A DNA stretch of 64,000 nt from Candidatus Woesearchaeota archaeon (GCA_018303365.1 JAGVYI010000016.1:15330-79329); one strand, 5' to 3'; positions 6,209-28,968 are shown, counted from the stretch's first letter. Made by a program: numbers and translations. The notes: generated by a model from the letters alone, not told the origin.

Positions 6209-6964
6209 ATGCAAAAAAGAGGACAACTTTACATTATTGCTGCACTTATTTTTAGTGCAGTTCTTTATACCCTTGCTACGCAAGCAAATACCTACAGGCA
6301 AGAAGACTTTGCCGAGGGTTTTGATGACCTTTCGACCAACTATGCTACTGAGAGCGAACGTCTTGTCAATTCACTTTTATATTCTAATCAAGATGTTCTT
6401 TCCGGGTTTACTAATTTTACACTTCTTTTTACCGGCTATACTAAATCGAAGAATCCTTCCTTTGGCTTGATATACATCTTTGAATTTAATGAGACTATTC
6501 AGGTTGGCAATTTTCTTGACCGGCCTATTATTATTGATACCGGTGATGCACAAAGTTATGATTTTCATAATTTGGAGGGGTGTTTTGACCGCGTTTCTGC
6601 TGTTGTGAAGTTTGCTGGTCTTTCTTTTTCCAGCGACGTTGCTGCAGGTGATATCCAGGAGTGCATTCTTACTTTTCCTACCAAGGATCAGATATGGATT
6701 GGAGTTGATGATGCCTGGTATCCTTTCTCTGTTGTTCGCGGCAAACCAACACTTATGATTGTTACCCGCCAAGAAGCCCAAGAACAAAGAAAGGTTTTTA
6801 TAGGCGGTGAAGGATTTGTTCGTAACAACCGTGACCGTCCTGGACTTCGCTCTCATTGCGAACAGTTGTCTTTGACTTCATGTGAGCTTGCAGGCAATAG
6901 GCGTCTTTGCTGTGTCAGGGATGGTGATTGCGTTCCGCAATATAACTGCATGGAAGAGGGGTGA
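6209..6964 (+). CDS. Class-III signal peptide (archaeal type IV pilin-like) protein.
   Basis: N-terminus MQKRGQ followed by about 20 hydrophobic residues (LYIIAALIFSAVLYTLA). It is first in a run of three overlapping pilin-like genes. Confidence 0.5.
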   Translation: MQKRGQLYIIAALIFSAVLYTLATQANTYRQEDFAEGFDDLSTNYATESERLVNSLLYSNQDVLSGFTNFTLLFTGYTKSKNPSFGLIYIFEFNETIQVGNFLDRPIIIDTGDAQSYDFHNLEGCFDRVSAVVKFAGLSFSSDVAAGDIQECILTFPTKDQIWIGVDDAWYPFSVVRGKPTLMIVTRQEAQEQRKVFIGGEGFVRNNRDRPGLRSHCEQLSLTSCELAGNRRLCCVRDGDCVPQYNCMEEG

Positions 6965-7401
6965 TGTTTATCTTGAAAAAAGGTGTCGGTGCTCTTATAG
7001 GATGGGTTCTTCTTCTGGGTTTTGTTATTAGTATTGGCACTATGGTTTTTTTGAGTTTGCGGACTCATACTACTGAGCTTAGCGATCGTACTGTGAATTA
7101 TATATCTGGGCGCCTTGAATGTTCGGAAATCAACATTAACGTTGTTACTGCTCCTTCTTGCTCTTCGTTCTCCGTGACTAACAGGGGTGTTCTTAATATC
7201 GACCAAGTTGCTGTACGAATTTATAACGGCGAGACCCCAGTTGGTCAAACCCAGATATTTGAGAGTGTTATTGCGCCACATGCAACTGTAGATTATACGC
7301 CAGATTCTTCTGGTGAGCGCATAGAGGTTATTCCTATTGTTCTTATTGATAACAAACCATCAGGCTGTCTTGAGCGGAGGATTATCAAGCCATGTGGTTG
7401 A
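6961..7401 (+). CDS. Class-III signal peptide pilin-like protein.
   Basis: MMFILKKGVGALIGWVLLLGFVISIGTMVFL. ATGA overlap with the upstream gene. Confidence 0.5.
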   Translation: MMFILKKGVGALIGWVLLLGFVISIGTMVFLSLRTHTTELSDRTVNYISGRLECSEININVVTAPSCSSFSVTNRGVLNIDQVAVRIYNGETPVGQTQIFESVIAPHATVDYTPDSSGERIEVIPIVLIDNKPSGCLERRIIKPCG

Positions 7402-7862
7402 CTTCCAGGCAGGGTATTTCACCCTTTATTGCGACTGTTCTTCTGATTGGGCTTACAGTTACTGTTGCGCTTACAGTTATTCTTTGGGGTAGGAGTTACA
7501 TCCAAGAGCGCGCTGCTAAAGAAGGGGCTCTTTCTGAGAAGCAACTTACCTGCAAGATGATTTCATTTACTGCTACCCAGTCTTATCAGCAGTCTGGAGA
7601 GGTACACCTTGTGCTTAAAAATAAGGAAGACATTTCTATTGATAAATTTACTTTCCGCATTGAAGGGTCTGCTGCTGAACCAAAAGAGCGATATGATACG
7701 CTTCCTTCCCTTGCTACCAAAGAATATATTCTTTCATTTACTGAGGATGAACTGCAAAATATCGACCAGGTTTTTATTGTTCCTTGGCTTCGCGTTGCTT
7801 CAGGAGTTTATGTTCCCTGTTCTGACCAACATTTAACGGTCAATATTCTTTCGACTTCTTGA
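7392..7862 (+). CDS. Archaeal pilin/flagellin-like protein (DUF361-type N-terminus).
   Basis: RQGISPFIATVLLIGLTVTVA is the canonical archaeal class-III, DUF361-like N-terminus. Confidence 0.6.
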   Translation: MWLTSRQGISPFIATVLLIGLTVTVALTVILWGRSYIQERAAKEGALSEKQLTCKMISFTATQSYQQSGEVHLVLKNKEDISIDKFTFRIEGSAAEPKERYDTLPSLATKEYILSFTEDELQNIDQVFIVPWLRVASGVYVPCSDQHLTVNILSTS

Positions 7863-10217: not shown

Positions 10218-10266
10218 TCACCTCTTTTTTGTTTTAGGTGTGCCTTATTTTAAATATCTTTGTTTT

Positions 10267-12564: not shown

Positions 12565-12647
12565 GCTTGATTCTCTTTTTATTTGTATTTTTGAAAATAT
12601 GTTTTTCTTTTAAAACCTTTTGATTCTATTTTCAATAGTTTTTTAAG

Positions 12648-13670: not shown

Positions 13671-13745
13671 TGGGTGGTGTTCTAGTTGATTTGTTGATGG
13701 GTTGTTACGAAAATCTTTATATACCGCTTATAGTCTTTTTATTTA

Positions 13746-14327
13746 TTGAAAATGAAGCAACACTCTATGAATCGTAAAGTTATCTTACCCTTTGTTGGTT
13801 TACTTTCTTTGTCTCTTCTTGCTGTTTTTGCTTTTTCCCAACAGTCTGTTGTCGAGGATATACTCCGTGTTTCTTATAGCCAACTTAGAAATCAAGTTGG
13901 TTTTCGAGTTGGCACTACTGGCGTTACCTTCCCAAATTTTTATGTCTGGTCCAACTATTCCTATAATTATGTTGGTCTTGATAATCAAAGTAATTACCAA
14001 TATCTGCGCTTTCCTATGTACTTTGCTGAAACTCAACAACTCGCAGAGGGCTGGGTAAGTGGTTCAAAGCTAATTTTTTCTGCTCCAAATAATACAAATC
14101 CAGATGGTGTTGAGACTGTTAATACACAGTTTTACGTTCTCTACAAAGAAGGAGTTCCTTCAAATGCGGGTCATCGCTATACTTATCTTTGTTGCTATGA
14201 CGATTCTGCTGGGGCCTACCCAAACTCAACAGTTCTCTGCCAAAATGCAGACACAACTAAAATCACGAGCAAAGTTACAGACAACAGACCCAATGGTTAT
14301 TACTGCGGTTGGAATATAGCCAGGTGA
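13746..14327 (+). CDS. Secreted protein, unknown function.
   Basis: Signal peptide MKMKQHSMNRKVILPFVGLLSLSLLAVFAFS. Confidence 0.4.
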   Translation: MKMKQHSMNRKVILPFVGLLSLSLLAVFAFSQQSVVEDILRVSYSQLRNQVGFRVGTTGVTFPNFYVWSNYSYNYVGLDNQSNYQYLRFPMYFAETQQLAEGWVSGSKLIFSAPNNTNPDGVETVNTQFYVLYKEGVPSNAGHRYTYLCCYDDSAGAYPNSTVLCQNADTTKITSKVTDNRPNGYYCGWNIAR

Positions 14328-14331
14328 TTAG

Positions 14332-14577
14332 ATGATTAAGAAATCTATATTTGCTTTGATTTTTGTTTTTGGTTTATTCTTGTTTGGTTGCAGTTCTGGG
14401 CTAAGGGAAGCGAGCGGAAGTCTTCCTGTATCTCCCGGAACACCTGAGCAGGCGTCTGAGAATGCCGGTGTTGAGTCTGGTACTCCAAGCAGTCCTCCTC
14501 CATTTACCGGAGCTGTTATTGCTGAAGTTCCTCCTTTACCTGAACCTCCAGTGCAAGAAAGGTCTTCTCCTTACTAA
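14332..14577 (+). CDS. Small Pro-rich lipoprotein-like protein.
   Basis: LFLFGCSS lipobox-like motif after a signal sequence. Confidence 0.3.
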   Translation: MIKKSIFALIFVFGLFLFGCSSGLREASGSLPVSPGTPEQASENAGVESGTPSSPPPFTGAVIAEVPPLPEPPVQERSSPY

Positions 14578-14602
14578 CTTTTGCTTTCTATAAATTTTTC
14601 AG

Positions 14603-15141
14603 AAACATTTATTAATAACTCATTAAACATTAATTTCAATGAAAAAGAGGTCAAAGAAGAAGCCTTCTTCCAAGTTTTACCATCACCAGCTTTACATTCC
14701 AATCATTCTTGTTCTTTCTTTTGCTTCCCTTGCTTTGCTTTGGATATTTAGCACAGGTGCAACCGGTTATGCCACCTACAGCTTCGGCAACACTGTTCCG
14801 CAGGGGTTTGGAGTTCCGTGGAATGTATTTTCTTCACAGCATGAGAATATAATAAGCTCATCAAACGGAATGATTACTGCCCAGGCAGACTATGTCTATA
14901 AGTATGGCTATGTGTGGGATGGCAGCCAATGGACGCGCTTTGAGTTTCCACAGCAAAAGGTGTCTAATAATTGGGTTGCAAGAGAAGCTTCTTTTGATGT
15001 TAACAGTCTTGGTCTTACTGCTGGAGAATATTCTGTTGTTGCATATACATGCCAGTATGTGAATAAGGAATGGAAGTGCGGCTGTCGAACCTCACAGTGT
15101 CGAAACGGTGTTGATGGTGGTATGTGGCAGTTGCAGAAGGT
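14603..15141 (+). repeat. Direct repeat copy A, about 540 bp: promoter plus 5' coding region shared with 21063..21607.
   Basis: Manual alignment gives about 85-90% nt identity, including the TATA box, the ATG, the signal anchor and the CQYVN.EWKCGCRTSQCR domain. Confidence 0.8.
14608..14618 (+). promoter_or_regulatory. Archaeal TATA box (TTTATTAATAA) centred about 26 nt upstream of the ATG of paralog A; implies a leaderless transcript.
   Basis: An identical element at identical spacing precedes paralog B (21068..21078). Confidence 0.45.
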
Positions 15142-15991
15142 AAGAGTTACTGGTTCTTCTCTTGGTCCAAATGCTGAAATTCCAAGGAATATTGAGCTAG
15201 ATGTTCCCCATAGCCAAACCATATATAGAGGCGATTTATACTATTTAACTATAAATGTCTGGGGTGTTTCTAGCTTAGAGGGAATACATTACAAAGTGTT
15301 GTATTGTGATGCCACTGTTAATCCTAGTTGTGAACCAAACGTTGAGGGAAATAACATGATTCTAAATTCTAGTAATTGGAGATTTTTTAGAGGAACGACG
15401 AGAGGATGGAATAACTTCAACGCGACAGTTGCAAGATGGAGTGGGGATCGTACAGGGGGATTCAATTCCCTTTTTGGGCGCACAACCCCTCCAGAGGGTG
15501 AATATCGAGTTAGGTTTGTGTTGAATGGTATTGAATCTCAAGTCTATAATTTTAAGGTTGAGGATAGCAGGCCGGACAGGTCTCCTAGTTCGGCTGATTT
15601 TACTATATATCCGGCCCAAATGATCGAAGGCCAATCAGTTACCCTCCAGATTATAGCTACAGGAATTGCTTCAAGAAATGGTCTTGAAGATGCTGCAATT
15701 GAAATCAATACCTGTTATGCGGGGTCTTTTTCAAGTGATTATGAGGAACGAGATTGTTTTCCTGTTGGAGGTCAGAACACGCAGCGTCTTCCTCCTGCAG
15801 GGGATGATCCCTGGATACTTAGCAGTGACTCTTTATTTTCTCGAGCAACACTGTTAACTAGACCTTCAACTATTGTTCGTCCTAGGGAGGGTGGTAGTTA
15901 TCGGCCAGAGGAAGGTTACTACAATGTGTGGATTAAGATATATGGTACTGAATCTCATGTAAGCAGAATTGGAGTTAGAAGTTCTCCATAG
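14639..15991 (+). CDS. Surface protein paralog A: conserved N-terminal signal-anchor plus Cys-containing domain, with a unique C-terminal domain.
   Basis: MKKRSKKKPSSKFYHHQLYIPIILVLSFASLALLWIF... The first ~170 aa are nearly identical to those of the 21099 gene. Confidence 0.65.
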   Translation: MKKRSKKKPSSKFYHHQLYIPIILVLSFASLALLWIFSTGATGYATYSFGNTVPQGFGVPWNVFSSQHENIISSSNGMITAQADYVYKYGYVWDGSQWTRFEFPQQKVSNNWVAREASFDVNSLGLTAGEYSVVAYTCQYVNKEWKCGCRTSQCRNGVDGGMWQLQKVRVTGSSLGPNAEIPRNIELDVPHSQTIYRGDLYYLTINVWGVSSLEGIHYKVLYCDATVNPSCEPNVEGNNMILNSSNWRFFRGTTRGWNNFNATVARWSGDRTGGFNSLFGRTTPPEGEYRVRFVLNGIESQVYNFKVEDSRPDRSPSSADFTIYPAQMIEGQSVTLQIIATGIASRNGLEDAAIEINTCYAGSFSSDYEERDCFPVGGQNTQRLPPAGDDPWILSSDSLFSRATLLTRPSTIVRPREGGSYRPEEGYYNVWIKIYGTESHVSRIGVRSSP

Positions 15992-16031
15992 TTTTCGAAA
16001 TATTTATATATTCCCATATAATCTTTCATTT

Positions 16032-16529
16032 ATGTTTTACCAAAAGAGGGGTATTTCACCACTTATTGCTACTGTCTTGATTCTTGGTTTTACCGTGGCA
16101 CTTGGTGTTCTTATTATTAATTTTAGCACTTCGTTTACAAGAAATATTCAGGAACAGACAACGGAATCTTCAAACACCCAGATTATCTGTGCTCAAGAAG
16201 TACTATTTAGCATTTCTAATGCCTGCGATGCAGGAAATAATATTGTTCGCGTGACTGTCAAAAATGATGGTTCCAGAGATATTGATCGGTTTATCTCTAG
16301 ATTTTATAGGAGTGAGAGTGATGTTGCTCAAGAGACCCTTACATTTATTAATAATGGCAATGGCATTTCTTCTTTTAACATAGAGTCTGATGAGGTTACT
16401 ATTCCTAATGGTCCTGTTCGCCAAGTTGAACTTATCCCTGTTGTTACTATCTCTGGCAAATCTGTTACGTGTTCAACCAATGTTGACTCTTTCGGAGCTG
16501 TTCTTGGAGATGGTCTTCTTGGTTGCTGA
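16032..16529 (+). CDS. Archaeal pilin-like protein (DUF361-type).
   Basis: MFYQKRGISPLIATVLILGFTVALGVLI. The internal Met was chosen as the start; the ORF-track start at 15969 is upstream. Confidence 0.55.
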   Translation: MFYQKRGISPLIATVLILGFTVALGVLIINFSTSFTRNIQEQTTESSNTQIICAQEVLFSISNACDAGNNIVRVTVKNDGSRDIDRFISRFYRSESDVAQETLTFINNGNGISSFNIESDEVTIPNGPVRQVELIPVVTISGKSVTCSTNVDSFGAVLGDGLLGC

Positions 16530-16538
16530 AGGGTCATT

Positions 16539-17060
16539 ATGAAGCTGGGTGAGGTTTGGGTTTCTGCAGTTCTTTACTTGGCTTTGGGTCTTATACTTAT
16601 CACAATTGTTCTTGCTGCCGGCATCCCTCTTATTAACAAAATACGAGACCGCAATACTGTTGCGCAAACAAAGGACATTCTTTTTGTCCTTGATAAAAAC
16701 ATCCGAACTGTTGCTTCTGAAGGCACAGGCTCAAAGCGCTATGTAAGTCCGGTTAACATTGATGCGGGAGAGCTTGTTTTTGATTCTGACCAAGACAGAC
16801 TTTCCTGGAGCATGACAACAAGCAACAAACTTGCAGAGCCCAGTCTTACACTTCAGGAAGGAGTACTGTTTCTTCGCCTTGATGAGACTCCTATTTCTGA
16901 TGAGTATAAGGTTAATCTGTGGCTTGATTACCTGAATCTCTATGACCTTTTCATGGTTTCAGACTTTTCCAATCCTTTTTCTGGAACTTATAGTCTTTCT
17001 ATTGAAAATAATGGAACCTATGCCAATGGTCGACCCACGATTGTTTTAAGGGTTGCTTAG
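16539..17060 (+). CDS. Pilin-like / pilus-assembly accessory protein (FlaF/FlaG-like N-terminal anchor).
   Basis: N-terminal hydrophobic anchor VSAVLYLALGLILITIVLAAGIPLINKIR, then a beta-rich domain. Confidence 0.4.
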   Translation: MKLGEVWVSAVLYLALGLILITIVLAAGIPLINKIRDRNTVAQTKDILFVLDKNIRTVASEGTGSKRYVSPVNIDAGELVFDSDQDRLSWSMTTSNKLAEPSLTLQEGVLFLRLDETPISDEYKVNLWLDYLNLYDLFMVSDFSNPFSGTYSLSIENNGTYANGRPTIVLRVA

Positions 17061-17609: not shown

Positions 17610-19232
17610 GTGGAACTTGGTCTTTTTAGTAAAAAGAAAGAGAATCAACCGCAACAACCCCCTTCTTCAGTGCAATCTTCTTCTCAACAAAAACCTGTTT
17701 TTTCTCTTGAAGGTGATAAACCTCCAGCACAGCTTCCAGACTTTACAGATGTCTCAAAGGTTGATGTCCGCTACCCATTGCTTGCACCCTATGCTTTAGT
17801 TCACATTTACTGGGATGCTCCATCTCACGAGCTTGTCTATGAGGTTGAAGAGCCTCAACTCTCTTCTGAAGAAAAAGAAATGCTTTCAACCCTTGAGGAT
17901 GGTATTCGCGAGCTTATCAACATTAGCTTTGTAAACATCAAAGACGAGACGATCATTATTTCTTACCTTGAGAAAAATTTGCAGGTTTTACTCTCTGAGT
18001 TTCACCTACGTATAAAAAAAGAAACTTTCTTGAAGTTTATGTACTATATGTACCGCGACTTTGTCGGCCTTAATGAGATTGAGCCACTTATGCATGATTA
18101 TTATATTGAGGATATTGAATGCAACGGCTCCCAAACGCCCCTTTATATTATTCACCGCAAGTATCAGAATTTGCGAACAAATATTGTTTTTCCTTCAAAC
18201 CAGCCTCTTGCAAGTTTTGTTGAAAAGCTTGCACAGAAAACAGGGAAGTATGTATCATATGCAACGCCCCTTCTTGACGGCAGGCTTCCTGATGGTTCCC
18301 GTGTAAATGCAGTCTATTCCTCTGATGTTTCAAGCAGAGGACCGACTTTTACTATTAGGAAGTTTTCGCGTGAGCCATGGACTCCAATAAAACTTGTTGA
18401 TTTTCGTACTGTTTCTCCCGAGATTCTAGCATATCTTTGGATTCTTATTGAAAACGGTACCAATATCATGGTTGTTGGCGGGACCGGCTCTGGAAAGACT
18501 TCATTTTTGAATGCTATTGCTTTTTTTATTCCGCCTGCTGCCCGTATTGTCTCTATTGAAGATACAAAAGAACTGCAACTTGAGCATGAAAACTGGCTTC
18601 CAAGCATTGCCAGAGAAGGGATTGGTCTTGCTTCGTCCACTGGTCAGAAAAGGGGAGAGGTTACTTTATTCGACCTTCTTCGTGAGAGTTTTCGCCAGCG
18701 TCCTGATTATGTTATTGTTGGAGAGATTCGTGGCAAAGAGGCCTTTGTCCTTATCCAAGGGGCAAGTTCTGGCCATCCTTCTTTTGCAACAATGCATGCG
18801 GAGTCTGTTGAGTCCATGGTCAGGCGTCTAATGACTGAGCCTATTAATTTATCTCCCGCACTTGTTGAATCTATTGATGCTGTCTGCGTTTTAGTTCATG
18901 CAAAGGTTGGCGGCAAAGATGTTCGCCGGATTCGCGATATTTCTGAAATTATCAAGGTTTATCCAGACGGACAGGTGAAAACTAACGTACCCTTTGTCAG
19001 GGATCCACGCAGCGACAAATTTTATTTCCGTACTGGAAGCTATGTCTTTCAAAAGGTTGTTACCCAGCAAGGCATCAACCTGCAGGAGCTGAATCTTGAG
19101 TTTTCACGCAGGGCAAAGCTTCTTTTCAAACTATATGAGCAGAAAATTTTTGGATTTTCCGAAGTTCAGCAAGTTATTCACCAGTACTATAAATCTTCTA
19201 AGGAGGTTCTTTCCAGGTTCGGGATTTCTTAA
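17610..19232 (+). CDS. Type II/IV secretion-family ATPase (FlaI/TadA/PilB-like) of the archaeal pilus system.
   Basis: Walker A VVGGTGSGKTSF, the Asp/His boxes and GEIRG. GTG start, with AGAGGGTGA 5 nt upstream. Confidence 0.8.
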   Translation: MELGLFSKKKENQPQQPPSSVQSSSQQKPVFSLEGDKPPAQLPDFTDVSKVDVRYPLLAPYALVHIYWDAPSHELVYEVEEPQLSSEEKEMLSTLEDGIRELINISFVNIKDETIIISYLEKNLQVLLSEFHLRIKKETFLKFMYYMYRDFVGLNEIEPLMHDYYIEDIECNGSQTPLYIIHRKYQNLRTNIVFPSNQPLASFVEKLAQKTGKYVSYATPLLDGRLPDGSRVNAVYSSDVSSRGPTFTIRKFSREPWTPIKLVDFRTVSPEILAYLWILIENGTNIMVVGGTGSGKTSFLNAIAFFIPPAARIVSIEDTKELQLEHENWLPSIAREGIGLASSTGQKRGEVTLFDLLRESFRQRPDYVIVGEIRGKEAFVLIQGASSGHPSFATMHAESVESMVRRLMTEPINLSPALVESIDAVCVLVHAKVGGKDVRRIRDISEIIKVYPDGQVKTNVPFVRDPRSDKFYFRTGSYVFQKVVTQQGINLQELNLEFSRRAKLLFKLYEQKIFGFSEVQQVIHQYYKSSKEVLSRFGIS

Positions 19233-19234
19233 TT

Positions 19235-20209
19235 ATGGCAGACACATCTTCGTTTGTTGACAAAGAGACTCTTTCGCGCTATGTTGCTTTTCGCAAGAAG
19301 CACAAAGGGGATTTGAAAGATGAGTATGTTCTTTATTCTTCAAGCCCATTTGGACAGTTTGCTAATTCTATTTTTGAATCTGTTTCGCTAAATCTTATAA
19401 AAAAATATCCGCAATATTTCAAGAGTTTGTTTAAGGTCCTACGCGCTTCTGATTTTCCAATTCTTTCAAAGACATATGTCAGCATTATTCTACTTGTTGG
19501 GTTAGCTTCTTATCCTGTTTTTTTTATTCTTCTGCTTCTTTTATTTGGATTCTCAATTACCGGCTTTCTTAACACTTTTCTTCTAAGCCTTTTTGGTGCT
19601 GGACTTGCTCTTTTTCTTGCTTACCAATACCCTTCTTTTTTGGTTTCTTCGCGTCAGAGAAAGTTAAAAAATGACCTTCCATTTGCAGTTATCCATATGG
19701 CTGCTGTTGGAGGCAGCGGAGCCCATCCTTCTTCTATGTTCAACCTTATTGCAACCTCAGATGAGTATAAAGGGGTTCATCCAGAATTTAAGCGGGTTCT
19801 AAACGCTGTGAACCTTTTTGGATATGACCTAAGCACTGCTCTTCGCTCTGTTGCTGACAGTACTGGCTCGAGGGATATTCGCGACTTTTTCGGGGGTATG
19901 GCAACAACAATTGAAAGTGGCGGCAGCATGAAGGAGTTTCTTGATTCAAAGTCTGAGGACCTGATGGTAACATATCGTCTTGAGCGCAAGAAGTTTATCG
20001 AGAGCCTATCAACCTATTCTGATATTTACATTAGCCTATCAATTGGCGGGCCCCTTTTCTTTTTTATTGTCCTTGCTATCTTAAATCTACTTGGCGGTTC
20101 TGTCGGCGGGGTTGCGATCGGCACTCTTGCCACTATCGGTACTTTTGTTATCCTTCCTCTTATCAACCTCGGATTTTTAGCATTTTTAAAATTTAGCAGT
20201 TTAGAATGA
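19235..20209 (+). CDS. FlaJ/TadB-like membrane platform protein, first half.
   Basis: TM segments flank a GspF-like cytoplasmic helical domain. It starts 3 nt after the ATPase stop. Confidence 0.6.
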   Translation: MADTSSFVDKETLSRYVAFRKKHKGDLKDEYVLYSSSPFGQFANSIFESVSLNLIKKYPQYFKSLFKVLRASDFPILSKTYVSIILLVGLASYPVFFILLLLLFGFSITGFLNTFLLSLFGAGLALFLAYQYPSFLVSSRQRKLKNDLPFAVIHMAAVGGSGAHPSSMFNLIATSDEYKGVHPEFKRVLNAVNLFGYDLSTALRSVADSTGSRDIRDFFGGMATTIESGGSMKEFLDSKSEDLMVTYRLERKKFIESLSTYSDIYISLSIGGPLFFFIVLAILNLLGGSVGGVAIGTLATIGTFVILPLINLGFLAFLKFSSLE

Positions 20210-21060
20210 TTAATTTCAAGAAAGAATATTTTGTCGGCATCAGTCTTGCTTTGGTTTTACTAGTTCTAGATGTCTTGTTTCTTCGCTCTACCCGCTGGTT
20301 TATTGCTATTATTATTGTTTCTATCAATATTGGCTGGCTTCAGTTCTGGATTGACTTTTTTCGTGAACAGAACCGTCAGAAGGAAATTGATACAAAATTT
20401 CTTGAGTTTGTTCGCAATCTTGTCAGCACTGCCAAATCCGGTCTTTCAATTCCCAGGGCTATTATTCAAGCTTCTGGTGAGGACTATGGCGCTCTTACAC
20501 CATATGTTCGAAAGCTTTCTCACCAGGTTGAGTGGGGTGTTCCTGTTGAAAAGGCTCTTTTGACCTTTGCAAAGGATACTCGAAATGCTGTGATCAGCAG
20601 GTCTGTTTCTATTGTTATTGAAGCGAGCAAGGCTGGCGGTGATATAGAAAATGTTCTTGATTCTGTTACTGATTCTGTGATGTACGTAAAGAAAATCAAG
20701 CAGGAGAGGAAAAGCGGAACGTACTCGCAAATAGTCCAGGGTTATATTGTTTTTTTTATTTTCATTGCAATAATGCTTGTTTTGCAGCTCTGGCTTTTTC
20801 CACAGTTTTCTAATTTGAAAGGTCTTGGCCAAGGCGGCTCAGAGCTTGCTGGTTCTCTTGGTACAGGTGCTATTTTCGGTGAAGGAAAGCGTGCTGACAT
20901 AGATAGCATTTTTTTTAGTCTTATTCTTGTACAAGGTTTTTTTTCGGGAGTTATGATTGGTGCGTTCTCTGAAGGAAGCGTGAAGCGCGGTCTTTTGCAT
21001 TCTCTTGTTTTGATGACTCTTGCAACGCTTATTATTACAACTGCGAAGGGCGGGATTTAG
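20206..21060 (+). CDS. FlaJ/TadC-like membrane platform protein, second half.
   Basis: A second GspF-like domain between TM segments. ATGA overlap with the first half. Confidence 0.6.
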   Translation: MINFKKEYFVGISLALVLLVLDVLFLRSTRWFIAIIIVSINIGWLQFWIDFFREQNRQKEIDTKFLEFVRNLVSTAKSGLSIPRAIIQASGEDYGALTPYVRKLSHQVEWGVPVEKALLTFAKDTRNAVISRSVSIVIEASKAGGDIENVLDSVTDSVMYVKKIKQERKSGTYSQIVQGYIVFFIFIAIMLVLQLWLFPQFSNLKGLGQGGSELAGSLGTGAIFGEGKRADIDSIFFSLILVQGFFSGVMIGAFSEGSVKRGLLHSLVLMTLATLIITTAKGGI

Positions 21061-21062
21061 CA

Positions 21063-21607
21063 AAACATTTATTAATAACCCATTAAACATTAATTTTAAT
21101 GAAAAAGAGATCAAAGAAGAAGCCTTCTTTTAAGTTTTACCATCACCAGCTTTACATTCCAATCCTTCTTGTTCTTTCTTTTGCCTCCCTTGCTTTGCTG
21201 TGGATATTTAGCACCGGTGCGACTGGTTATGCCACCTACAGCTTTGGCAACACTGTTCCGCAGGGGTTCGGTGTTCCTTGGAATTTGTTTTCCAGTCAGC
21301 ATGAGAACTTGCTTGATTCTTCTGATAATACAATAAATGTTAAGGCAACTTTTGTCTATAAGTGGGGTTATATATGGGATCATAATGTCAGGCAGTGGAA
21401 GGGGTTTGAGTTTCCACAGCAGAAGGTATTTAATAATTGGGTTGCAAGAGAGGCTTCTTTTGATCTTAATAGCTTAAACCTTGTCCCTGGAGAGTATTCT
21501 GTTGTTGCCTATACCTGCCAGTATGTGAATAATGAATGGAAGTGCGGCTGTCGAACCTCACAGTGTCGAAGCGGTGTTGATGGAGGCATGTGGCAGATAC
21601 AGAAGGT
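21063..21607 (+). repeat. Direct repeat copy B (partner of 14603..15141).
   Basis: See copy A. Confidence 0.8.
21068..21078 (+). promoter_or_regulatory. Archaeal TATA box (TTTATTAATAA) for paralog B; leaderless spacing.
   Basis: Same element and spacing as at 14608. Confidence 0.45.
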
Positions 21608-22832
21608 TGATATTATTTCTGGCATAACCAAAGTAGGGACTGTGACTTATCGTGATGGCGATGCTTTTATTGGAGAAAATAAAAATAATCCAAAATGGGT
21701 TTGGAATTTAGAAGGTTTAACTACAAGTAATCCTACTCTTGGTGTTGAAAATGATTGGAAATATAGGGGTGTGTCCGATAGGGATACTGGTGTTTCTAGT
21801 GCTATTGGGGTTAGACAGTGTACAAACCTTCCAAATAATTATATTACCATTTGTTTTGCTGATATTGTTGGTTTAAACGAGAACATAGATAATTATACTA
21901 TATCCTTTGAGGAGAATATTGATTTGAGTGGTGCTGGAGGAAGATTTTCAACTTATATAGCCCGAAATGTTATTACCATTAGTAGTAATACCCAAAGTAT
22001 TGACTTGCATTCTTCTGCATCCCACGTTGTTACAAATTATGTTGCTTTAGTTATAGATGATTTAGATTCTAATAAGATAAACTTGTTCTATAAGGGGAGT
22101 AGGGGTTTTGTATTCTTTAGTGATTTAGCGAATTCAAAAGTGGCACTCTCCAATGATTGGTCCAATGATTTGCGACTTGATTTGATGAGTGGGTCTGGTG
22201 ACTTATACTCTTTGCACATTAATTCTCCTGTTGATGTTATTTCAGCTTTGTTCCGTGCTAGTGGTGGACGCGGTTTTTCTTCTCTTGGTAGCACACGTGG
22301 TTATGAAGAGTCTGGAGAATTGGTGTGGCAGTCTGACGACCCTAATACCGGAGTTGCTCTTTACTCTTTGAATATAGGGGCAATAGATGCAGACCTTCGA
22401 ACGTTGTATGGTGTTGTCATAAAAAATCCACGCGGCAATGGGGCTTCTGATGAAATATCCTTAGAAGTTCCAAGCAAACAACTTAGGGGGATTATTGAGA
22501 TAACTTCTCCTTCACTTAGACAACGAAAGGAAATTGCACTGGGGGGGTCCATAGGCAATAATCCATTATTTTCGGATAGCAATTATGGACTACTTACTTT
22601 TTCAAGAGACAGTCCAAGCCTAGAAACCAGTCTGTCTAGTTCAGAGAATGATTATGGAAGGAGGATATTTATGGAAGTAGATGTTGATTCTATAGCATAC
22701 ACTTCCCGTTCTCTTGACCTTTCAAGGCTAAGAACAGCATCCCCCCAAAATCCAGTTACGATAAATCATTTATTAGGAAGAGATATTACAATAACCGGAG
22801 TAACAGATAATTCAATAACAGTACTACAATAA
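21099..22832 (+). CDS. Surface protein paralog B: the same conserved N-terminal module, with a different C-terminal domain.
   Basis: The N-terminal ~170 aa are nearly identical to the 14639 gene; the remaining ~400 aa are unrelated. Confidence 0.65.
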   Translation: MKKRSKKKPSFKFYHHQLYIPILLVLSFASLALLWIFSTGATGYATYSFGNTVPQGFGVPWNLFSSQHENLLDSSDNTINVKATFVYKWGYIWDHNVRQWKGFEFPQQKVFNNWVAREASFDLNSLNLVPGEYSVVAYTCQYVNNEWKCGCRTSQCRSGVDGGMWQIQKVDIISGITKVGTVTYRDGDAFIGENKNNPKWVWNLEGLTTSNPTLGVENDWKYRGVSDRDTGVSSAIGVRQCTNLPNNYITICFADIVGLNENIDNYTISFEENIDLSGAGGRFSTYIARNVITISSNTQSIDLHSSASHVVTNYVALVIDDLDSNKINLFYKGSRGFVFFSDLANSKVALSNDWSNDLRLDLMSGSGDLYSLHINSPVDVISALFRASGGRGFSSLGSTRGYEESGELVWQSDDPNTGVALYSLNIGAIDADLRTLYGVVIKNPRGNGASDEISLEVPSKQLRGIIEITSPSLRQRKEIALGGSIGNNPLFSDSNYGLLTFSRDSPSLETSLSSSENDYGRRIFMEVDVDSIAYTSRSLDLSRLRTASPQNPVTINHLLGRDITITGVTDNSITVLQ

Positions 22833-22888
22833 ATTCTATCGGTTTAATATTCACAAAAAGCTTATAAGCCTCTTTTCTTTTTGTATTT

Positions 22889-25834
22889 TTGATGTTTAAA
22901 AGAGGTGTAAGCCATATTGACTGGGCTATTAGTATTGGCATCTTTCTTGTCCTTGTCCTCAGCATTGTTGTTTTTTTAAGACCTGGAGTTGAGACTTTTA
23001 CAAGCCATCAGGCGCTTGTGCAAACTGTCGAGTCAAACCTTAGAAGTGAATTTTCCAACGAACTTGAAAAGACTCCAATTTTTATTAATTCCACTGAGCA
23101 GCGTGCTGGAGATTACCAGATTACTTTCACTTTTGATGGTGGGGGCTTTCCATTTGAGGGAGAGAATGAAGAGTTTGTTGTTGTTGACTCTTTGAGCGCT
23201 GTTGTCCCGACTCAAATTTCAGGGGATGGCAGGGACCGTACACTTCGCTTTGACGGGTTTTTAGACCCACGCAAGACAAATGTGTTTTATATTCTCCATG
23301 CAAACGACACAACTTATTTGTCTTCTAATTTGGAGAACACATTTGTTCTTTTTGCTGGCTTAAACTTTTCTTATGACTTTGGAGTTACCAGAATAGAGCG
23401 CGGTTTTGACCTTTCAAGACTTCGTACAATTGAGCAGGATTATGATGCACTTAAAGAAACTTGGGGAATTCCTTCGGACAGAGAGTTTCTTATTCAAATT
23501 GCGCAGACTGACACATTTCGCTATACTTTTGATGACATTATTTTTCGCTATGCCAGACAAGACCCTACTTTTCAATCAGATGTTTTTGTTAAGGAGTTTA
23601 GAGATATTCTTCTTGACCCAAATGGTACGCGCACACCAATTCTTGTGAATATTCAAGCTGGGTTTTTTGGTGAGCCTACAAAGATTATATGCGCTGTTGA
23701 TGAAGATTGTGGGGTTTGCAACAGTTGTGTTAACGGCCAATGTGAAGCAGTCTCTTTTGGCAGTGATCCTCTTAACCAATGCAAAGATGTTGACTGCAGT
23801 GATTATTACTTTGGGTTTGTCGGCGGTGTTTGCTATGGGCGCGCTTCTATCCAGTCTGTTTGCAATGGTGCTGGGGCATGTACACAGGTTTCCGAGGATG
23901 ATTGTCCTGTTTCTGGTCGCGGAGAGTCATCAGGTGTGAGCTGTAGTGAATGCCAGCAAGAGAGCGGGTGCTCTGGGACCACTATGGGTTCTTGCTCTGT
24001 TGCTCTAGATGGTACAGATTGCATGGGGCTGTGCTCGCAGTGTGTTTCAGGTGCGTGCCGCCAGGCACCTTCTGATGATGCCTCGTGCGGCACTATTGAC
24101 TGCGATAACCTTGATGGATATAGCGTTGTTGGAGACAACTCTGCAAGCGGCAGTGCGAGCTGTGTTTTACGGGATTACTCCGACTTAACTTCCAATCGCT
24201 GTGAGGGGCTTCTTGACTGCCGAGATCCAAATACCGCCCCTGATTGTTCTGTTTTTACAGATAGGACTTTAGCTAATTGCGGTGTTTGCCAGCGTGTGCA
24301 AAGCTGTTCTCCTAATGGTGCGACCTGTACCACCTATCCTGCTAATACTCCCTGCGGCCCAGACAGGGTTTGCACTGAGACGGGTCAGTGCGTACGCTCT
24401 CCTCTTGAGATTCGTGGGGTCAAGCGCTTTACTTCCGGCAATTATGAATATGGTTTTGTTCGTATTTATCCTGGCGGGAAAATTATTCTTGATGGAGACA
24501 ATGTTGCTATTACTGTTGATGCATTTTTTGAAAATAACGGTGCTGTTGAGAGCAATACTTTTTCTCCACATCTTACTATTCGCGGCAGAGAGATTACTGG
24601 TTCTGGCCCTTATGCCCTTCAAGGAGGAAGGGGTCGCTATGAATGCGGGTGGAATGATGCTTGCTGGTGGGGAAGCGGAGGAGATTCCTCTCTTGTTTTA
24701 GATGCCAGTGCTGTATCTACAGGGGCTGTTAATGTTCGTTCTGGTTCTGGAGGTCCTGGAGGCAGGGCTTCTGTGATATTCAGGAATGCCCAAAATGGAA
24801 ACGTTGCGTCTTTGAGTGTTATTGGGGCTTCAGGAGCCAATAGCGGCATTAGTTCTTTTGGATGTAGCGGTTATAATGGTGGCAGTGCTGATGTTTCCTT
24901 TGAGTCTAGCTCTTTAAATATTGGGTCTGTTGTTGTTCAAGGAGGAGATGCTTCTTCTCCTGCATGTGTCGGTGAACCTGGGACCGGCGGGAGTGCTACT
25001 TTTCGTGGCAGCGGCAGTGGAGCTTCTATTACCTTTACTTCTTCTTTTAATTTAGAGGGTGGGGATGGCACCAGCGGTTATAGTTCTTATTATAGAACTT
25101 CTGTTTTTGGGCGCGGTGGATCTGCAGAGGTTTCTTTGAGCAATGGCGGAGATGTTTCTTTTCTTGGGCCAGTAAACCTTCAAGGCGGTATCGGCGGTTA
25201 CTCCTCAGGTGCGGGTGTTATGAGCATATCTGCAAACAGACTATCCCAAAAAAGGGAACTTGTTATTGCTGCTGGCCAAGCGCGAAGCGGTGTTTGCCGT
25301 GCTTATACCTGTTGGGATTCTGGGGCAGTGCTTAATTCACAGGGTGGAGAAGCGCGTTTGAGCTTTTCAGGGAATTCTTATACTTCTGAGGGGCCTGTTA
25401 CACTTACTGCTGGGTCTGGGTTTTCTGTCTCTTCTGGAGGCAGCGCCCTTGTTTCCATTCAAGCAACAAACAGCTTTTCTTATACTTCTCCTTTTACTCT
25501 GCGCGCCGGGAACTCTTTTGATGGGTGCCTTAATGGCTATTATGGAGGAAATGCAATTGTTGATATCAATAGTCAGACTATTTCAGGCAGCTCCTCTTTT
25601 ACTACTTATGGTGGTAATGGAGGCCGCGCCTCTGAACCTTACTGGTGTAATGATGCGTGCTATGAACGTGTGGGGGGTAATGGGGGAGATTCTCTTTTGC
25701 GCCTTCGTACCAGTTCAACAGACCCACCCCATAATGGGCAGGGAGGGAGTGTGGGAGGCAATGCCGGAAGTTTTTGTCGTTATAAGCAGTCTTCGCGACC
25801 AACAAATGGGAGGTTTGCAACAGAAAGATATTGA
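22889..25834 (+). CDS. Giant (981 aa) pilin-anchored surface protein: class-III-like N-terminus, a Cys-rich region, and a long Gly/Ser-rich repetitive region that may be beta-helix-like.
   Basis: MMFKRGVSHIDWAISIGIFLVLVLSIVVF. Dense Cys clusters across aa 260-480. Recurrent GG.G/SGS segments in the C-terminal half. Confidence 0.65.
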   Translation: MMFKRGVSHIDWAISIGIFLVLVLSIVVFLRPGVETFTSHQALVQTVESNLRSEFSNELEKTPIFINSTEQRAGDYQITFTFDGGGFPFEGENEEFVVVDSLSAVVPTQISGDGRDRTLRFDGFLDPRKTNVFYILHANDTTYLSSNLENTFVLFAGLNFSYDFGVTRIERGFDLSRLRTIEQDYDALKETWGIPSDREFLIQIAQTDTFRYTFDDIIFRYARQDPTFQSDVFVKEFRDILLDPNGTRTPILVNIQAGFFGEPTKIICAVDEDCGVCNSCVNGQCEAVSFGSDPLNQCKDVDCSDYYFGFVGGVCYGRASIQSVCNGAGACTQVSEDDCPVSGRGESSGVSCSECQQESGCSGTTMGSCSVALDGTDCMGLCSQCVSGACRQAPSDDASCGTIDCDNLDGYSVVGDNSASGSASCVLRDYSDLTSNRCEGLLDCRDPNTAPDCSVFTDRTLANCGVCQRVQSCSPNGATCTTYPANTPCGPDRVCTETGQCVRSPLEIRGVKRFTSGNYEYGFVRIYPGGKIILDGDNVAITVDAFFENNGAVESNTFSPHLTIRGREITGSGPYALQGGRGRYECGWNDACWWGSGGDSSLVLDASAVSTGAVNVRSGSGGPGGRASVIFRNAQNGNVASLSVIGASGANSGISSFGCSGYNGGSADVSFESSSLNIGSVVVQGGDASSPACVGEPGTGGSATFRGSGSGASITFTSSFNLEGGDGTSGYSSYYRTSVFGRGGSAEVSLSNGGDVSFLGPVNLQGGIGGYSSGAGVMSISANRLSQKRELVIAAGQARSGVCRAYTCWDSGAVLNSQGGEARLSFSGNSYTSEGPVTLTAGSGFSVSSGGSALVSIQATNSFSYTSPFTLRAGNSFDGCLNGYYGGNAIVDINSQTISGSSSFTTYGGNGGRASEPYWCNDACYERVGGNGGDSLLRLRTSSTDPPHNGQGGSVGGNAGSFCRYKQSSRPTNGRFATERY

Positions 25835-26550
25835 AAATGACTTTTTTGTTTTGGGATAGAGATGGTGTTTTTTCAAAAAAAGGGTCTACTCTCTTTTTTT
25901 TAATCGTTCTTATACTCTTAGGAATAGGCGCTTATTTTGGATATCGTTATTTTTTTCCTGATGACCAGAAAACCTTTAATCAGTCTATCTTAGAAGAAGA
26001 TGTTGGGGGTTGCTCTAGCATTGATGATCCTTTTTTGCGCCGCTCTTGCATTCATTTTATTTTGGGTAATCCCAACATTACTGAAGAACATTTTCTTTTT
26101 ACTGACCCTTTAGCACGCACTTTTGAGAGCATCCATAGCGCCACTGTTTATCCTAATGGAACACAAATTCCTTGCGAACGCATTGACGATGCTGGTCTTA
26201 GCGAGGCCTGCCTTTCCTTGAAAGGGCAGGATACCACGTGCTCTGATTCGTGCAAGGCTTGGGTTTCTTATCTTAGTGCAATAAAAAAAGATGATCCTTC
26301 TTTATGCGATTCCCTGACAGAGGTTCTTGTTTCATCTAAGGGGGTTTCACTTCGAGGGGCTTGCTTTTCTTTTTTTGAGGGTTATGATACTCCACCACTT
26401 GAATCTCTTGAACACAATGAGAAGTATTACCGCGATGCTCTTTTTTCTTTGAAATTAGAAGAATGCGAAAAAATTACTCTGGACTCTTTTCGTGAGAAGT
26501 GCAGAGAAGATGTTTCTCTACGCCTTTCTGTTCTGGAGGATCAACAATGA
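25831..26550 (+). CDS. Class-III signal-like membrane-anchored Cys-containing protein.
   Basis: SKKGSTLFFLIVLILLGIGAYFGY. ATGA overlap with the upstream gene. Confidence 0.45.
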   Translation: MKMTFLFWDRDGVFSKKGSTLFFLIVLILLGIGAYFGYRYFFPDDQKTFNQSILEEDVGGCSSIDDPFLRRSCIHFILGNPNITEEHFLFTDPLARTFESIHSATVYPNGTQIPCERIDDAGLSEACLSLKGQDTTCSDSCKAWVSYLSAIKKDDPSLCDSLTEVLVSSKGVSLRGACFSFFEGYDTPPLESLEHNEKYYRDALFSLKLEECEKITLDSFREKCREDVSLRLSVLEDQQ

Positions 26551-26963
26551 TTTTCTCCAATCGCTCAGGGTATCTTAGAACACTTGAGGCAATTATTGCT
26601 GCTGTCCTTGTCCTTATATTCATTTTTACACTTCTTCCAAGGCGTGAGATTTCTTCCCCTGAGACCCCTTATGTTGTTCAAAGCTCACAGGAATTTATAT
26701 TGAACCAGATTCTTGTTAATGACACTCTTCGCGGGTGTGTTGTTTCTGATCCGCTGTGCGAGAATTCTGATGCTATGCGTCAGCTTATTCTAGACAATCT
26801 TCCTCCGGGGTACACTTATGGATTTAAGATTTGTGACACTACTAATTGCCTTATTTCTACATCTCCGGATAAGTCGGTCTTTGTTGATGACGTGCTTCTC
26901 TCTGCTGATTTGGCAAGCCAGAATCCAAAAGTATTTCGCCTTTGGCTCTGGGAAGGAGAGTAA
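26547..26963 (+). CDS. Pilin-like small protein.
   Basis: MIFSNRSGYLRTLEAIIAAVLVLIFIFTLLP. ATGA overlap; internal start chosen. Confidence 0.4.
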   Translation: MIFSNRSGYLRTLEAIIAAVLVLIFIFTLLPRREISSPETPYVVQSSQEFILNQILVNDTLRGCVVSDPLCENSDAMRQLILDNLPPGYTYGFKICDTTNCLISTSPDKSVFVDDVLLSADLASQNPKVFRLWLWEGE

Positions 26964-27542: not shown

Positions 27543-28172
27543 ATGATGACGATGCTGACTGGCTTTTTGCGTCGCCTTAGTTTTCTTTTTCGCCGTAGGC
27601 GTCATGTGAAGCTTGGTCTTTATGGACCACCAAACTCAGGGAAGACCACTCTTGCAAACCGCATATGTAAAGACTGGATTGGTGAGGAGATGGGCATTGC
27701 TTCACGTATTCCTCATGAAACAAGGGAAGTTGTTATTAAAGAGAAGATTGAAATGAAGTCGCGCGGGCGTTTTCTTAGTTTCAACTTGGTTGACACTCCC
27801 GGAATTGCAACCAAAATTGATTATGAAGATTTTCTCAAGTATAATATGAGTGCAAAGGATGCAAAACAACGGGCGAAAGAAGCAACAAAAGGTGTTATTG
27901 AGGCTATTAAGTGGCTTGATGACATGGATAGTGTAATTGTTGTACTTGACTCTACGAAGGATCCATATAGTCAAGTTAATTTAACAATTATTGGAAACCT
28001 TGCTGCCCGTGATATTCCTGTTCTTGTTGTTGGTAACAAGGTTGATGTGAGGAGTTCAAATCTGCGACGTATTCAGAATGCATTTCCACAATACAATATT
28101 ATTGGTATTAGTGCTTTAAGAGGCAAGAACATTGAGGCTTTTTATGAGGCTCTTTTTAAGCTTGTGCGATAG
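27543..28172 (+). CDS. Small Ras/Era-like GTPase (archaeal GTPase of the DUF2073/DUF2072 triad).
   Basis: G1 GPPNSGKT, G3 DTPG, G4 NKVD. Confidence 0.7.
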   Translation: MMTMLTGFLRRLSFLFRRRRHVKLGLYGPPNSGKTTLANRICKDWIGEEMGIASRIPHETREVVIKEKIEMKSRGRFLSFNLVDTPGIATKIDYEDFLKYNMSAKDAKQRAKEATKGVIEAIKWLDDMDSVIVVLDSTKDPYSQVNLTIIGNLAARDIPVLVVGNKVDVRSSNLRRIQNAFPQYNIIGISALRGKNIEAFYEALFKLVR

Positions 28173-28186
28173 GAGGTTGATGTACT

Positions 28187-28588
28187 GTGCTTACTTTACA
28201 ATTCATTCCACGTGCTGAGGTAGAACACCTTCCATCTTCTTCCAGAATTCGCAGACTCCTTGCTCTTGTGAAGGAAGATAAAATTGTCCTTCTTGAAGGG
28301 CGGCTAAGCCCTACTGAAGAGACAGAGCTTATTCAACGCACTATGGAAGATGTTTCAAAGGATTTTAAAGGTATTGAGCTTTGTACAATTTATCCTGGAA
28401 GCAGTCATAATGATAACCTTATCAGCAAACTGAGGCATAGCCTCATTGGTTTTCTTCTTGGTGACCGCCAGGGTCTTACAGTTATTGGGCCTGCTACAAT
28501 TATTAAAGAGATTCGTCGTGATCCTAATAAAGTTCAGGTTATTACAGAGAGTATTCGTCGCCGTAAGCGCCGAAACTCACGAAGGTAG
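28187..28588 (+). CDS. Conserved archaeal protein co-occurring with the GTPase (DUF2073-like).
   Basis: Position and size; a conserved partner in the archaeal GTPase/Zn-ribbon triad. The assignment is from memory of family organisation. Confidence 0.4.
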   Translation: MLTLQFIPRAEVEHLPSSSRIRRLLALVKEDKIVLLEGRLSPTEETELIQRTMEDVSKDFKGIELCTIYPGSSHNDNLISKLRHSLIGFLLGDRQGLTVIGPATIIKEIRRDPNKVQVITESIRRRKRRNSRR

Positions 28589-28590
28589 GT

Positions 28591-28968
28591 ATGCCTCACC
28601 AATGTGTTCGTTGTGGAAACCTGTATCCCGATGGTTCTTCCCAATTGCTTGAGGGTTGCAAATGCGGTGGGAAATTTTTCTTCTTTGTTAAAAAGCATGA
28701 GGTTGAAGAGGCAAAAGAGCTTGTTGCTACCCTTACGAAGAAAGACAAGGACACGATGGAGCAGGATGTTTATGATATTCTTGGGATTGAAGACCAGACC
28801 AAGCCTGTTATTTTGGATCTTGAATCAATCCGGGTTTTAAGCCCTGGCAAATACCAGCTTGATGTTGTTGAACTTTTCAAGGGAAAACCACTTGTTTACA
28901 GGCTTGAAGACGGGAAGTACATTATTGATCTTGCTTCAAGTTTCCGGCGTCAGCAGGCAGACCGCTGA
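28591..28968 (+). CDS. Zn-ribbon protein (DUF2072-like).
   Basis: CVRCGN...CKCGG is a C4 zinc ribbon. It is the third member of the triad. Confidence 0.45.
   Translation: MPHQCVRCGNLYPDGSSQLLEGCKCGGKFFFFVKKHEVEEAKELVATLTKKDKDTMEQDVYDILGIEDQTKPVILDLESIRVLSPGKYQLDVVELFKGKPLVYRLEDGKYIIDLASSFRRQQADR

Follow-up and report, generated by a model that had tools for sequence, protein, structure and literature searches.

A candidate modular pilin-like protein with a Cys-rich stalk and a predicted beta-helix in a type IV pilus-like operon of a Woesearchaeota archaeon

A life attached to other cells is assumed for the DPANN archaea, Woesearchaeota among them, and the molecules that make this contact are largely unknown. 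In a 64,000-nucleotide stretch of DNA from a Candidatus Woesearchaeota archaeon (GCA_018303365.1 JAGVYI010000016.1:15330-79329; this whole stretch is referred to as the window), an uninterrupted open reading frame (ORF) on the + strand, at 22889..25834, encodes a protein of 981 residues when read from its TTG start codon, and belongs to a type IV pilus-like operon of that strand. An original prediction, made from the sequence alone, described the product as a pilin-type N-terminus fused to Cys-cluster and Gly/Ser repetitive domains and as a candidate pilus-tip or pilus-displayed adhesin. The question raised by this locus is whether one polypeptide indeed joins a component of a pilus machine to a large surface domain and, if so, how such a protein might be used. 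The data point to a modular pilin-like subunit with a Cys-rich stalk and a beta-helix, whose leader would be cleaved and which would be incorporated into a filament, presumably at its tip, where it would function as a surface- or pilus-displayed adhesin; the probability of this reading is estimated to be about 0.6.

The ORF is present as predicted, with a continuous reading frame and with exactly the N-terminus that had been quoted, MMFKRGVSHIDWAISIGIFLVLVLSIVVF. An ATG codon at 22892, one codon past the TTG, gives a product of 980 residues starting with MFKRG (target gene, 22892..25834, +), and this is the likelier start, because it agrees both with the gene calls in public records and with the consensus leader of the family, discussed below. 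Residue numbers refer to the 981-residue ORF from TTG 22889, and 1 has to be subtracted to obtain the numbering of the 980-residue product. The latter is 100% identical to P0001 (NCBI J4430_02750), annotated as a hypothetical protein of Candidatus Woesearchaeota archaeon. The same 980-residue protein is found on 11 contigs of ENA, JGI and Logan assemblies, from several samples, and therefore the long ORF is no assembly artefact.

The N-terminal part of the protein is a pilin-like module, here named T_N, which covers residues 1-258 in the 980-residue count (22892..23665, +), as defined by a family hidden Markov model (HMM) and by synteny. A HMMER scan of 1.84 billion representatives, using a chimeric query of the N-part and the C-part of the target and E<=1e-3, identifies 379 representatives of the T_N family; among the matches listed (150 of the 379), all except the target itself align to the N-part only. 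These relatives are mostly 230-290 residues long, the stand-alone form having about 250 residues and ending in ...NIRVW, and by the family HMM 141 of the 146 full-length representatives terminate no more than 5 residues from this family C-terminus. At this position the target reads ...NIQAG, and then continues for 724 residues via an 8-residue linker, FGEPTKII (23666..23689, +), which by alignment connects the end of the family module with the first Cys cluster. The proposed fusion is confirmed in this sense: a pilin-like module that is normally complete carries an extension that begins exactly at the family C-terminus. As is characteristic of modular pilins, the N-module also exists alone, and the extra C-terminal module is attached to it by a short linker.

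Such extensions are rare in the family, as C-terminal additions of more than 30 residues are present in only 4 of the 146 representatives, being the target (724 residues, the largest), P0028 (242 residues) and P0035 and P0074 (about 125 residues each). The graft of P0028 consists of a Pro/Thr linker and a Laminin_G_3 (PF13385)/ConA-type lectin (E 6.4e-12); in bacterial modular pilins, PF13385 lectins are one of the most frequent kinds of graft (PMC8179133). The grafts of P0035 and P0074 consist of three 'F-I-x-N-x-x-G-x-x-VAYID-x-x-G-x-L' repeats without a profile match, and in other members the variable middle of the module contains insertions, such as the CxDGxDNDGDG repeats of P0027. These four relatives, P0028, P0035, P0074 and P0027, come from other metagenomes. 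The grafts on other T_N members support a display role. P0028 also has a weak, below-cut-off match to the NCBIfam 'TafC family fimbrial protein'. The only Pfam match of the module itself is to DUF7287, an uncharacterised archaeal family, and this weak likeness is limited to the N-terminal ~45 residues, comprising the leader and the hydrophobic helix (target E 0.002-0.013). It is seen in 5 of 32 family members with a best E of 7e-4, all matches being below the gathering threshold (19 versus 27 bits). A literature search on DUF7287-7289 and on Woesearchaeota pili found nothing useful, and a profile search of the Protein Data Bank (PDB) with the T_N family alignment gave chance matches only (E about 1). 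The T_N family is both widespread and uncharacterised.

A long ORF could also result from a chimeric assembly, or from a frameshift that joined a 250-residue gene to a downstream gene, and such an origin would fit the facts that T_N members are nearly always of about 250 residues and that the G+C content of the extension is 0.47-0.51, compared with about 0.40. Such an artefact is nevertheless extremely improbable, given the identical 980-residue call on contigs of independent assemblies and samples, the continuous reading frame across the 8-residue linker, the third-position G+C of the beta-helix part (0.30, as in the genome) and the in-frame C-terminal modules of three other family members. 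The higher G+C of the extension is explained by its amino-acid composition, as its third-position G+C is like that of the genome. Along the window, the G+C content is 0.47-0.48 at 24001-26000 and at 8001-12000 and about 0.40 elsewhere, and in the target and the checked Cys-rich neighbours, being Gly/Cys/Ser/Ala-rich proteins, it is raised at codon position 2 and not at position 3. Horizontal transfer of the extension was considered and rejected, since the third-position G+C matches the genome. No paralogs of the target are found within the window.

The genomic context of the module was compared in 80 Woesearchaeota/Nanoarchaeia loci, chosen by their ATPase (54-66% identity). The conserved gene order is p251-p146-p156-pil165-pil173-ATPase-FlaJa-FlaJb-T_N-g138; in 65 of 71 related loci T_N comes directly after FlaJb, and in 64 it is itself followed by g138. 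In the window, the KKG-leader pilin-like genes p251, p146 and p156 (6209..7862, +), which in relatives are directly upstream of pil165, are followed at a distance by the pilin pair upstream of the ATPase (15969..17060, +). This pair comprises pil165 (16032-16529), which matches the archaellin/pilin N-terminal domain TIGR02537 (E 1.5e-6), and the pilin-like pil173 (16539-17060), recognized by its KKG leader and by synteny. The pilus assembly ATPase, of the T2SSE type, is encoded at 17610..19232 (+) and has a FlaI-like score of 394 bits, below the 550-bit cut-off. The platform is split over two FlaJ/TadC-type genes (19235-20209 and 20206-21060, +), both matching PF00482 and corresponding to ArlJ/UpsF halves. 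A split platform gene is the hallmark of the archaeal 'System 1' type 4 filament (TFF) loci, which occur in methanogens and DPANN and are regarded as the source of the bacterial Tad system (bioRxiv 10.64898/2026.04.22.720090).

The window departs from the conserved order by three insertions and one extension, the latter being the 724 codons on the T_N gene. The insertions are ~8 kb at 7833-15991, g577 (21099..22832, +), a lineage-specific secreted protein of 577 residues between FlaJb and the target, and g237 (25837..26550, +), a lineage-specific Cys-containing protein of 237 residues between the target and g138. The latter gene (26547..26963, +) encodes a conserved pilin-like partner of 138 residues with consensus mnKKG/yIrTLEAvIA (the slash marks the predicted cleavage position), and is followed in the operon by a gene for a 148-residue protein. 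In relatives, the T_N gene abuts or overlaps the platform gene, unlike the target, which is preceded by a 56-nt gap after g577. This gap contains an A-rich stretch with a TATA-like TTATAA element (22854-22867, +; TTATAA at 22862..22867), centred ~27 nt before ATG 22892, so that the target possibly has its own archaeal promoter, giving a leaderless mRNA.

The archaeal prepilin criteria are G, A or S at position -1, a charged residue at -2, an H-domain and, in a subset, an acidic residue at +5 (PMC4371748). The target has the predicted leader MFKRG (22892..22906, +), assigned from these criteria and from the family consensus, with predicted cleavage after the Gly, before Val. This places G at -1, R at -2 and K at -3, followed immediately by the 24-residue hydrophobic helix VSHIDWAISIGIFLVLVLSIVVFL and then R-P-G (22907..22987, +), with D at +5 and W at +6; the linkage to ATPase and platform genes is also as expected for a class III signal. 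The family consensus is M-x-K-K-G/x-S-H-V-D-W-A-I-S-x-G-I-F-L-V-Y…, with 24 hydrophobic residues and then K/R-P-G. Its leader frequencies are K in 92% at -3, K/R in 97% at -2, G in 93% and A in 6% at -1, and W in 89% at +6; D at +5 and F18 are invariant in the 32 aligned members (32/32), and the Pro after the hydrophobic stretch occurs in about 99%. Conservation is highest in the first 32 residues, where 0.65-0.74 of the sequences have the commonest residue, compared with 0.30-0.42 elsewhere. A best-conserved N-terminus is usual in pilins and not in ordinary Sec signals.

The x-K-K/R-G leader directly before the hydrophobic stretch is shared by all seven conserved operon families, including the profile-confirmed pilin pil165. 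The window-specific g237 also has a leader of this type, SKKG/STLFFLIVLILLGIG. This sharing between the seven families and g237 implies one peptidase specificity for the whole set, as judged from the sequences. The class III-like N-terminus of the original prediction is thus supported by the sequence criteria, by a leader conserved in a family of 379 representatives and by its occurrence throughout the operon, and the target would be cleaved after MFKRG. A basic N-region with a hydrophobic stretch also resembles a Sec signal anchor, and the target could be a surface protein secreted or anchored by an ordinary Sec signal, having nothing to do with the pilus and located in the operon by coincidence. 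This is very unlikely, as the N-module gene keeps its place directly behind the platform genes in 65 of 71 loci, whose ATPases are only 54-66% identical, its 32 N-terminal residues are the most conserved of the family, and the 24-residue segment has no signal peptidase I-type c-region.

The linker leads into the Cys-rich region. It contains 32 Cys residues in residues 266-520, which is also the maximum of any 250-residue segment, and the whole protein has 42; the cluster is therefore real, while the earlier count of at least 45 in about 250 residues was too high. Similarly, the quoted motifs CGVCNSC, CSECQQESGC, CSQCVSGAC, GGDGTSGYS and GGNGG (twice) are present, and what had been quoted as GGSGGPGG reads SGSGGPGG. 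Two modules are distinguished. The type I module (residues 268-376; 23690..24016, +; CGxCxxC…DCSDYYFG…CNGAGAC) is 36% identical to the repeated unit of the dockerin-bearing P0003. The type II module (residues 377-505; 24017..24403, +; C..C..C…DDxxCGTIDCDxLD…NRCEGLxDCxD…) is 33-42% identical to tandem units in P0002, P0004, P0005 and P0006, which in P0002 and P0006 have a CBM96 domain on one side and a C-terminal membrane anchor on the other. Searches of Pfam and NCBIfam at permissive thresholds give 0 matches for the Cys-rich region. The use of like modules as tandem spacers in other surface proteins suggests that these modules form a disulfide-stabilised stalk, and the presence of a DsbA-type gene at the start of the window fits with disulfide-rich modules.

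The remaining part of the protein (residues 521-981) contains 19% Gly and 16% Ser, in agreement with the Gly/Ser repetitive region described earlier. It has ~10 degenerate repeats of 27-46 residues, each of the form GG-[SDNE]-[AS]-x-[VL]-x-[FLI] … [VF]-x-[LV]-x-[GA]-G-x-G and a variable Gly-rich loop. The motif G[GA]x[AS]x[VLIFM]x[FLIVM] is observed 8 times, compared with 0.10 expected from composition-preserving shuffles, and as the motif was chosen after viewing the sequence its P value is optimistic. In the AlphaFold2 (AF2) single-sequence model, residues 506-981 are all-beta and periodic, with predicted local distance difference test (pLDDT) values of 70-93 for the strands and below 50 for the Gly loops. 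The model has the three-stranded stacked coils of a right-handed parallel beta-helix. It begins with a cap and first irregular coils (24404..24676, +), modelled as beta strands of lower confidence, and continues with ~10 degenerate coils, located by the repeat pattern (24677..25783, +). The earlier proposal of a parallel beta-helix or solenoid is supported by this model at the level of the fold, at moderate model confidence, and residues 506-981 are thus predicted to form a right-handed parallel beta-helix. The protein ends with a basic tail, KQSSRPTNGRFATERY (25784..25831, +; pLDDT about 26), and this tail sequence contains no C-terminal membrane anchor.

By sequence, the beta-helix is an orphan. 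The search for beta-helix or pectate-lyase profiles that had been proposed came out empty, with 0 families for residues 506-981 in Pfam at E<=10 and in NCBIfam at E<=1, including Beta_helix, Pectate_lyase, Chlam_PMP and the haemagglutination domain, and no relatives of this region were found by sequence in any search, including a metagenome contig scan. It is conceivable that the beta-helix is an enzyme, such as a polysaccharide lyase or a depolymerase like those of phage tailspikes, that opens the envelope or capsule of a host; this function is compatible with display on a pilus and is considered rather unlikely. Two other resemblances were rejected. The likeness of 'GGSA-x-V-x-F' to the 'GGAI' repeat of chlamydial PMP proteins is unsupported, with 0 Pfam/NCBIfam matches, and the PDB sequence search with the full protein returned antibody light chains only (best E 6.7e-5), over 'RGSGSGASITFTSS', which is a compositional coincidence with the 'RFSGSGSGTDFTLTISS' framework.

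The extension (residues 266-981, 716 residues) has 0 N-x-S/T sequons, compared with 8.2 expected from shuffles (P<0.0002), and the pilin-like module (residues 33-265) has 4, compared with 1.7 expected. A similar depletion is seen in the secreted g577 (1 versus 7.8 expected) and in g765 (0 versus 7.8), a protein described below, and cytoplasmic controls are not depleted. This suggests selection against N-glycosylation sites in large surface domains.

Several results weigh against the modular pilin reading. There is no match to the pilin profiles TIGR02537, Pilin_N and TadE in the target or in 32 family members (E<=0.01 for TadE/Tad), and a motif search for a prepilin peptidase shows no such gene in the window or in the 80 neighbourhoods. 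The near-invariant Pro-Gly right after the 24-residue stretch may end the N-terminal helix earlier than in canonical pilins. The globular fold of the N-module cannot be read from its AF2 single-sequence model (pLDDT 40.8), in which the helix of residues 8-53 is confident only for ~residues 11-30. Comparison of T_N with the six other operon pilin families by HHalign is not significant (probability <=25%), only the KKG and transmembrane register being aligned. For the C-terminal part, the model confidence is moderate (predicted template modelling score 0.68, mean pLDDT 59.6), and Foldseek lists mainly beta-helix proteins, none of them significant.

Some of these points would fit better if T_N kept its leader and served the pilus machine as an accessory protein anchored in the membrane by its N-terminus, like archaellum FlaF/FlaG or alignment proteins, with the stalk and the beta-helix on the cell surface as an adhesin or as an envelope-spanning structure. 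The gene follows the platform genes together with one small partner, g138, the 250-residue module exceeds the operon pilins of 145-173 residues, it has no pilin profile match, and the conserved R-P-G comes straight after the hydrophobic segment. In addition, a preprint on archaeal TFF systems notes beta-helical or S-layer-like accessory proteins that possibly aid filaments in crossing the envelope (bioRxiv 10.64898/2026.04.22.720090). The K-K-G (about 93-97%) before the hydrophobic stretch and the invariant acidic residue at +5 are, however, typical of prepilins and hard to reconcile with a plain anchor, and the bona fide pilin pil165 bears the same leader. An accessory protein is a serious alternative, judged to be clearly the less probable one.

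If the target is a modular pilin-like subunit, the following mechanism can be proposed. Residues 1-259 would be a core, single-copy component of the conserved Woesearchaeota pilus machinery, ending in a globular part of ~230 residues. Prepilin peptidase would remove the leader MFKRG, and the hydrophobic helix with its acidic +5 residue would insert into the helix bundle at the base or the tip of the filament, the ATPase and the split platform assembling the module with six other KKG-leader proteins. The subunit would most probably be of low abundance (a minor pilin) and tip-located; the tip is favoured because an appendage of 75 kDa would fit best there, by analogy with what is argued for PilB and TadG/KilN. 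The two disulfide-rich modules (residues 268-505) would act as a rigid stalk, and the ~10-coil beta-helix (residues 506-965) would form a rod, roughly 5 nm long, that offers a binding surface. Held off the cell in this way, the stalk and the beta-helix could bind a ligand on a host cell or a surface polymer.

This design is already known from bacteria. Examples from Streptococcus sanguinis are the modular pilins PilB, with a vWA module, and PilC, with a lectin module of the ConA-like type (Raynaud et al. 2021, PMC8179133). Like the target, bacterial modular pilins have a small pilin module, a short linker and a bulky non-pilus module, which is proposed to be tip-exposed and adhesive, and the sister protein P0028 carries the same kind of module, Laminin_G_3/ConA (PF13385). 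The target differs in being archaeal, in having a KKG-type leader without the IPR012902-type N-methylation motif, in the size of its pilin-like module (~250 residues), and in its three-part graft of 724 residues, composed of two Cys-rich modules and the predicted beta-helix. The survey of modular pilins covers bacteria only, and archaea are unmentioned (PMC8179133). The beta-solenoid module of the minor pilin ComZ of Thermus, which serves in ligand (DNA) binding, is akin to the predicted beta-helix of the target (PMC8179133); ComZ is bacterial and its module belongs to a competence pilus. No sequence relation between the two was seen, no test aimed at one having been made.

A second comparison is with TadG/KilN, a large minor pilin at the tip of Tad (type IVc) pili with a C-terminal modular domain, encoded after tadA-tadB-tadC, the variable domains of which are proposed to customise the tip (PMC12075869). 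As in the target operon, the genes for the large member and its small partner pilins lie downstream of those for an ATPase and two platform proteins. Tad is believed to have evolved from an archaeal Epd-like 'System 1', and the split platform of that system is also found in the target's operon. There is, however, no detectable TadE/TadG profile similarity, and the extension domains are unrelated; a tip complex is suggested here only by analogy. It is tentatively proposed that T_N is the archaeal counterpart of TadG/KilN-type tip pilins and that Woesearchaeota customise their tips with interchangeable C-terminal recognition modules, these being the beta-helix of the target, the ConA lectin of P0028 and the triple-repeat module of P0035 and P0074; this is regarded as possible and still doubtful. 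If true, accessory surface genes are inserted at the same junction, and the host or substrate specificity of uncultivated DPANN could be read from their genomes by way of the graft. The Gly-rich beta-helix, an orphan by sequence, would then also be a new class of adhesin, delivered by a type IV filament and not by type V secretion.

Among archaeal proteins, the bindosome has large components (at least 4 times the size of pilins) that bear a processing site of the pilin type and rely on a PilB/PilC-type pair for their assembly on the surface. In the bindosome, solute-binding proteins gained a class III signal, whereas in the target a pilin-like operon component gained an adhesin-like extension. 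The statement that pilin-anchored proteins of this size are not well described in archaea is therefore true in part only: large class III proteins are known, namely the solute-binding proteins of the bindosome and the 'relatively large pilins' of Haloferax. Known beta-helix adhesins (the two-partner secretion (TPS) domains of EtpA and HMW1, VacA p55 and the autotransporters UpaB, Hap, TibA and Ag43) are 10-16% identical to the target, without a profile match. They use type V secretion, in contrast to the pilin-type signal export predicted for the target, whose coils are Gly-rich with variable loops (27-46 residues) in a model of moderate confidence. With modular pilins, including TadG/KilN, known from bacteria, the target is an unusually large archaeal case, based on prediction, and its uncharacterised features are the T_N family, with its invariant acidic +5 residue, and the sequence-orphan Gly-rich beta-helix.

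No new principle is at stake. The locus provides a concrete, testable candidate for a DPANN cell-contact molecule, in a conserved seven-pilin operon of most Woesearchaeota in which one core subunit would occasionally serve as a scaffold for binding modules. The principle of a modular pilin with an adaptable tip, which is experimentally established only in bacteria, would be extended to an archaeal system of the type regarded as ancestral to Tad. The locus is of value for annotation, as a target for structure prediction, metaproteomics and imaging, and as a marker with which host-recognition repertoires can be compared among genomes.

In relatives the genes of the pilin cluster are contiguous; in the window they are separated by the ~8 kb of lineage-specific genes at 7833-15991, encoding Cys-rich and other predicted secreted proteins. 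These proteins include a Cys-rich one of 794 residues starting with MPIKKG/VFAVLILGF (7833-10217, - strand), the 765-residue g765 with PKD domains and Cys-rich repeats (10267-12564, - strand), a Ser/Cys-rich protein of 340 residues (12648-13670) and proteins of 193 and 450 residues with N-terminal hydrophobic segments. The last of these, g450 (14639-15991), is a paralog of g577: over their first ~165 residues (MKKRSKKKPS.KFYHHQLYIPI…CGCRTSQCR.GVDGGMWQ) the two are nearly identical, whereas their C-terminal parts are unrelated. The 80 related loci contain no homolog of either protein, and both lack a match in Pfam. In another Woesearchaeota genome (locus L035, 14284-20337), genes for secreted proteins of 1040 and 545 residues are inserted at the FlaJb-T_N junction, the former protein having the N-terminus …WKRG/IVLSSFVVLVGFF. 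These insertions parallel that of g577, and the junction thus seems to be a place where accessory surface genes are inserted repeatedly. The extension was not found as a separate gene downstream of g138 in relatives, where the variable gaps encode proteins with cytoplasmic-looking N-termini and no Cys/Gly/Ser-rich surface proteins.

Two further gene groups flank the pilus operon. Downstream, a trio of genes for a GTPase (MMR_HSR1), OapB and OapC is located at 27546-28968, and the same trio is found in at least 17 related loci, at a variable distance. At the start of the window, an envelope-gene cluster (28-1986) encodes a DsbA/Thioredoxin_4 protein (28-435), a multi-pass membrane protein with a CPGC motif (441-971), a small protein with a thioredoxin-type WCPHC motif (986-1363) and a membrane protein like Lit, the lipoprotein intramolecular transacylase (1360-1986). 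It is possible that this cluster is an extracytoplasmic disulfide-forming set, which would fit with the many Cys-rich secreted proteins encoded nearby.

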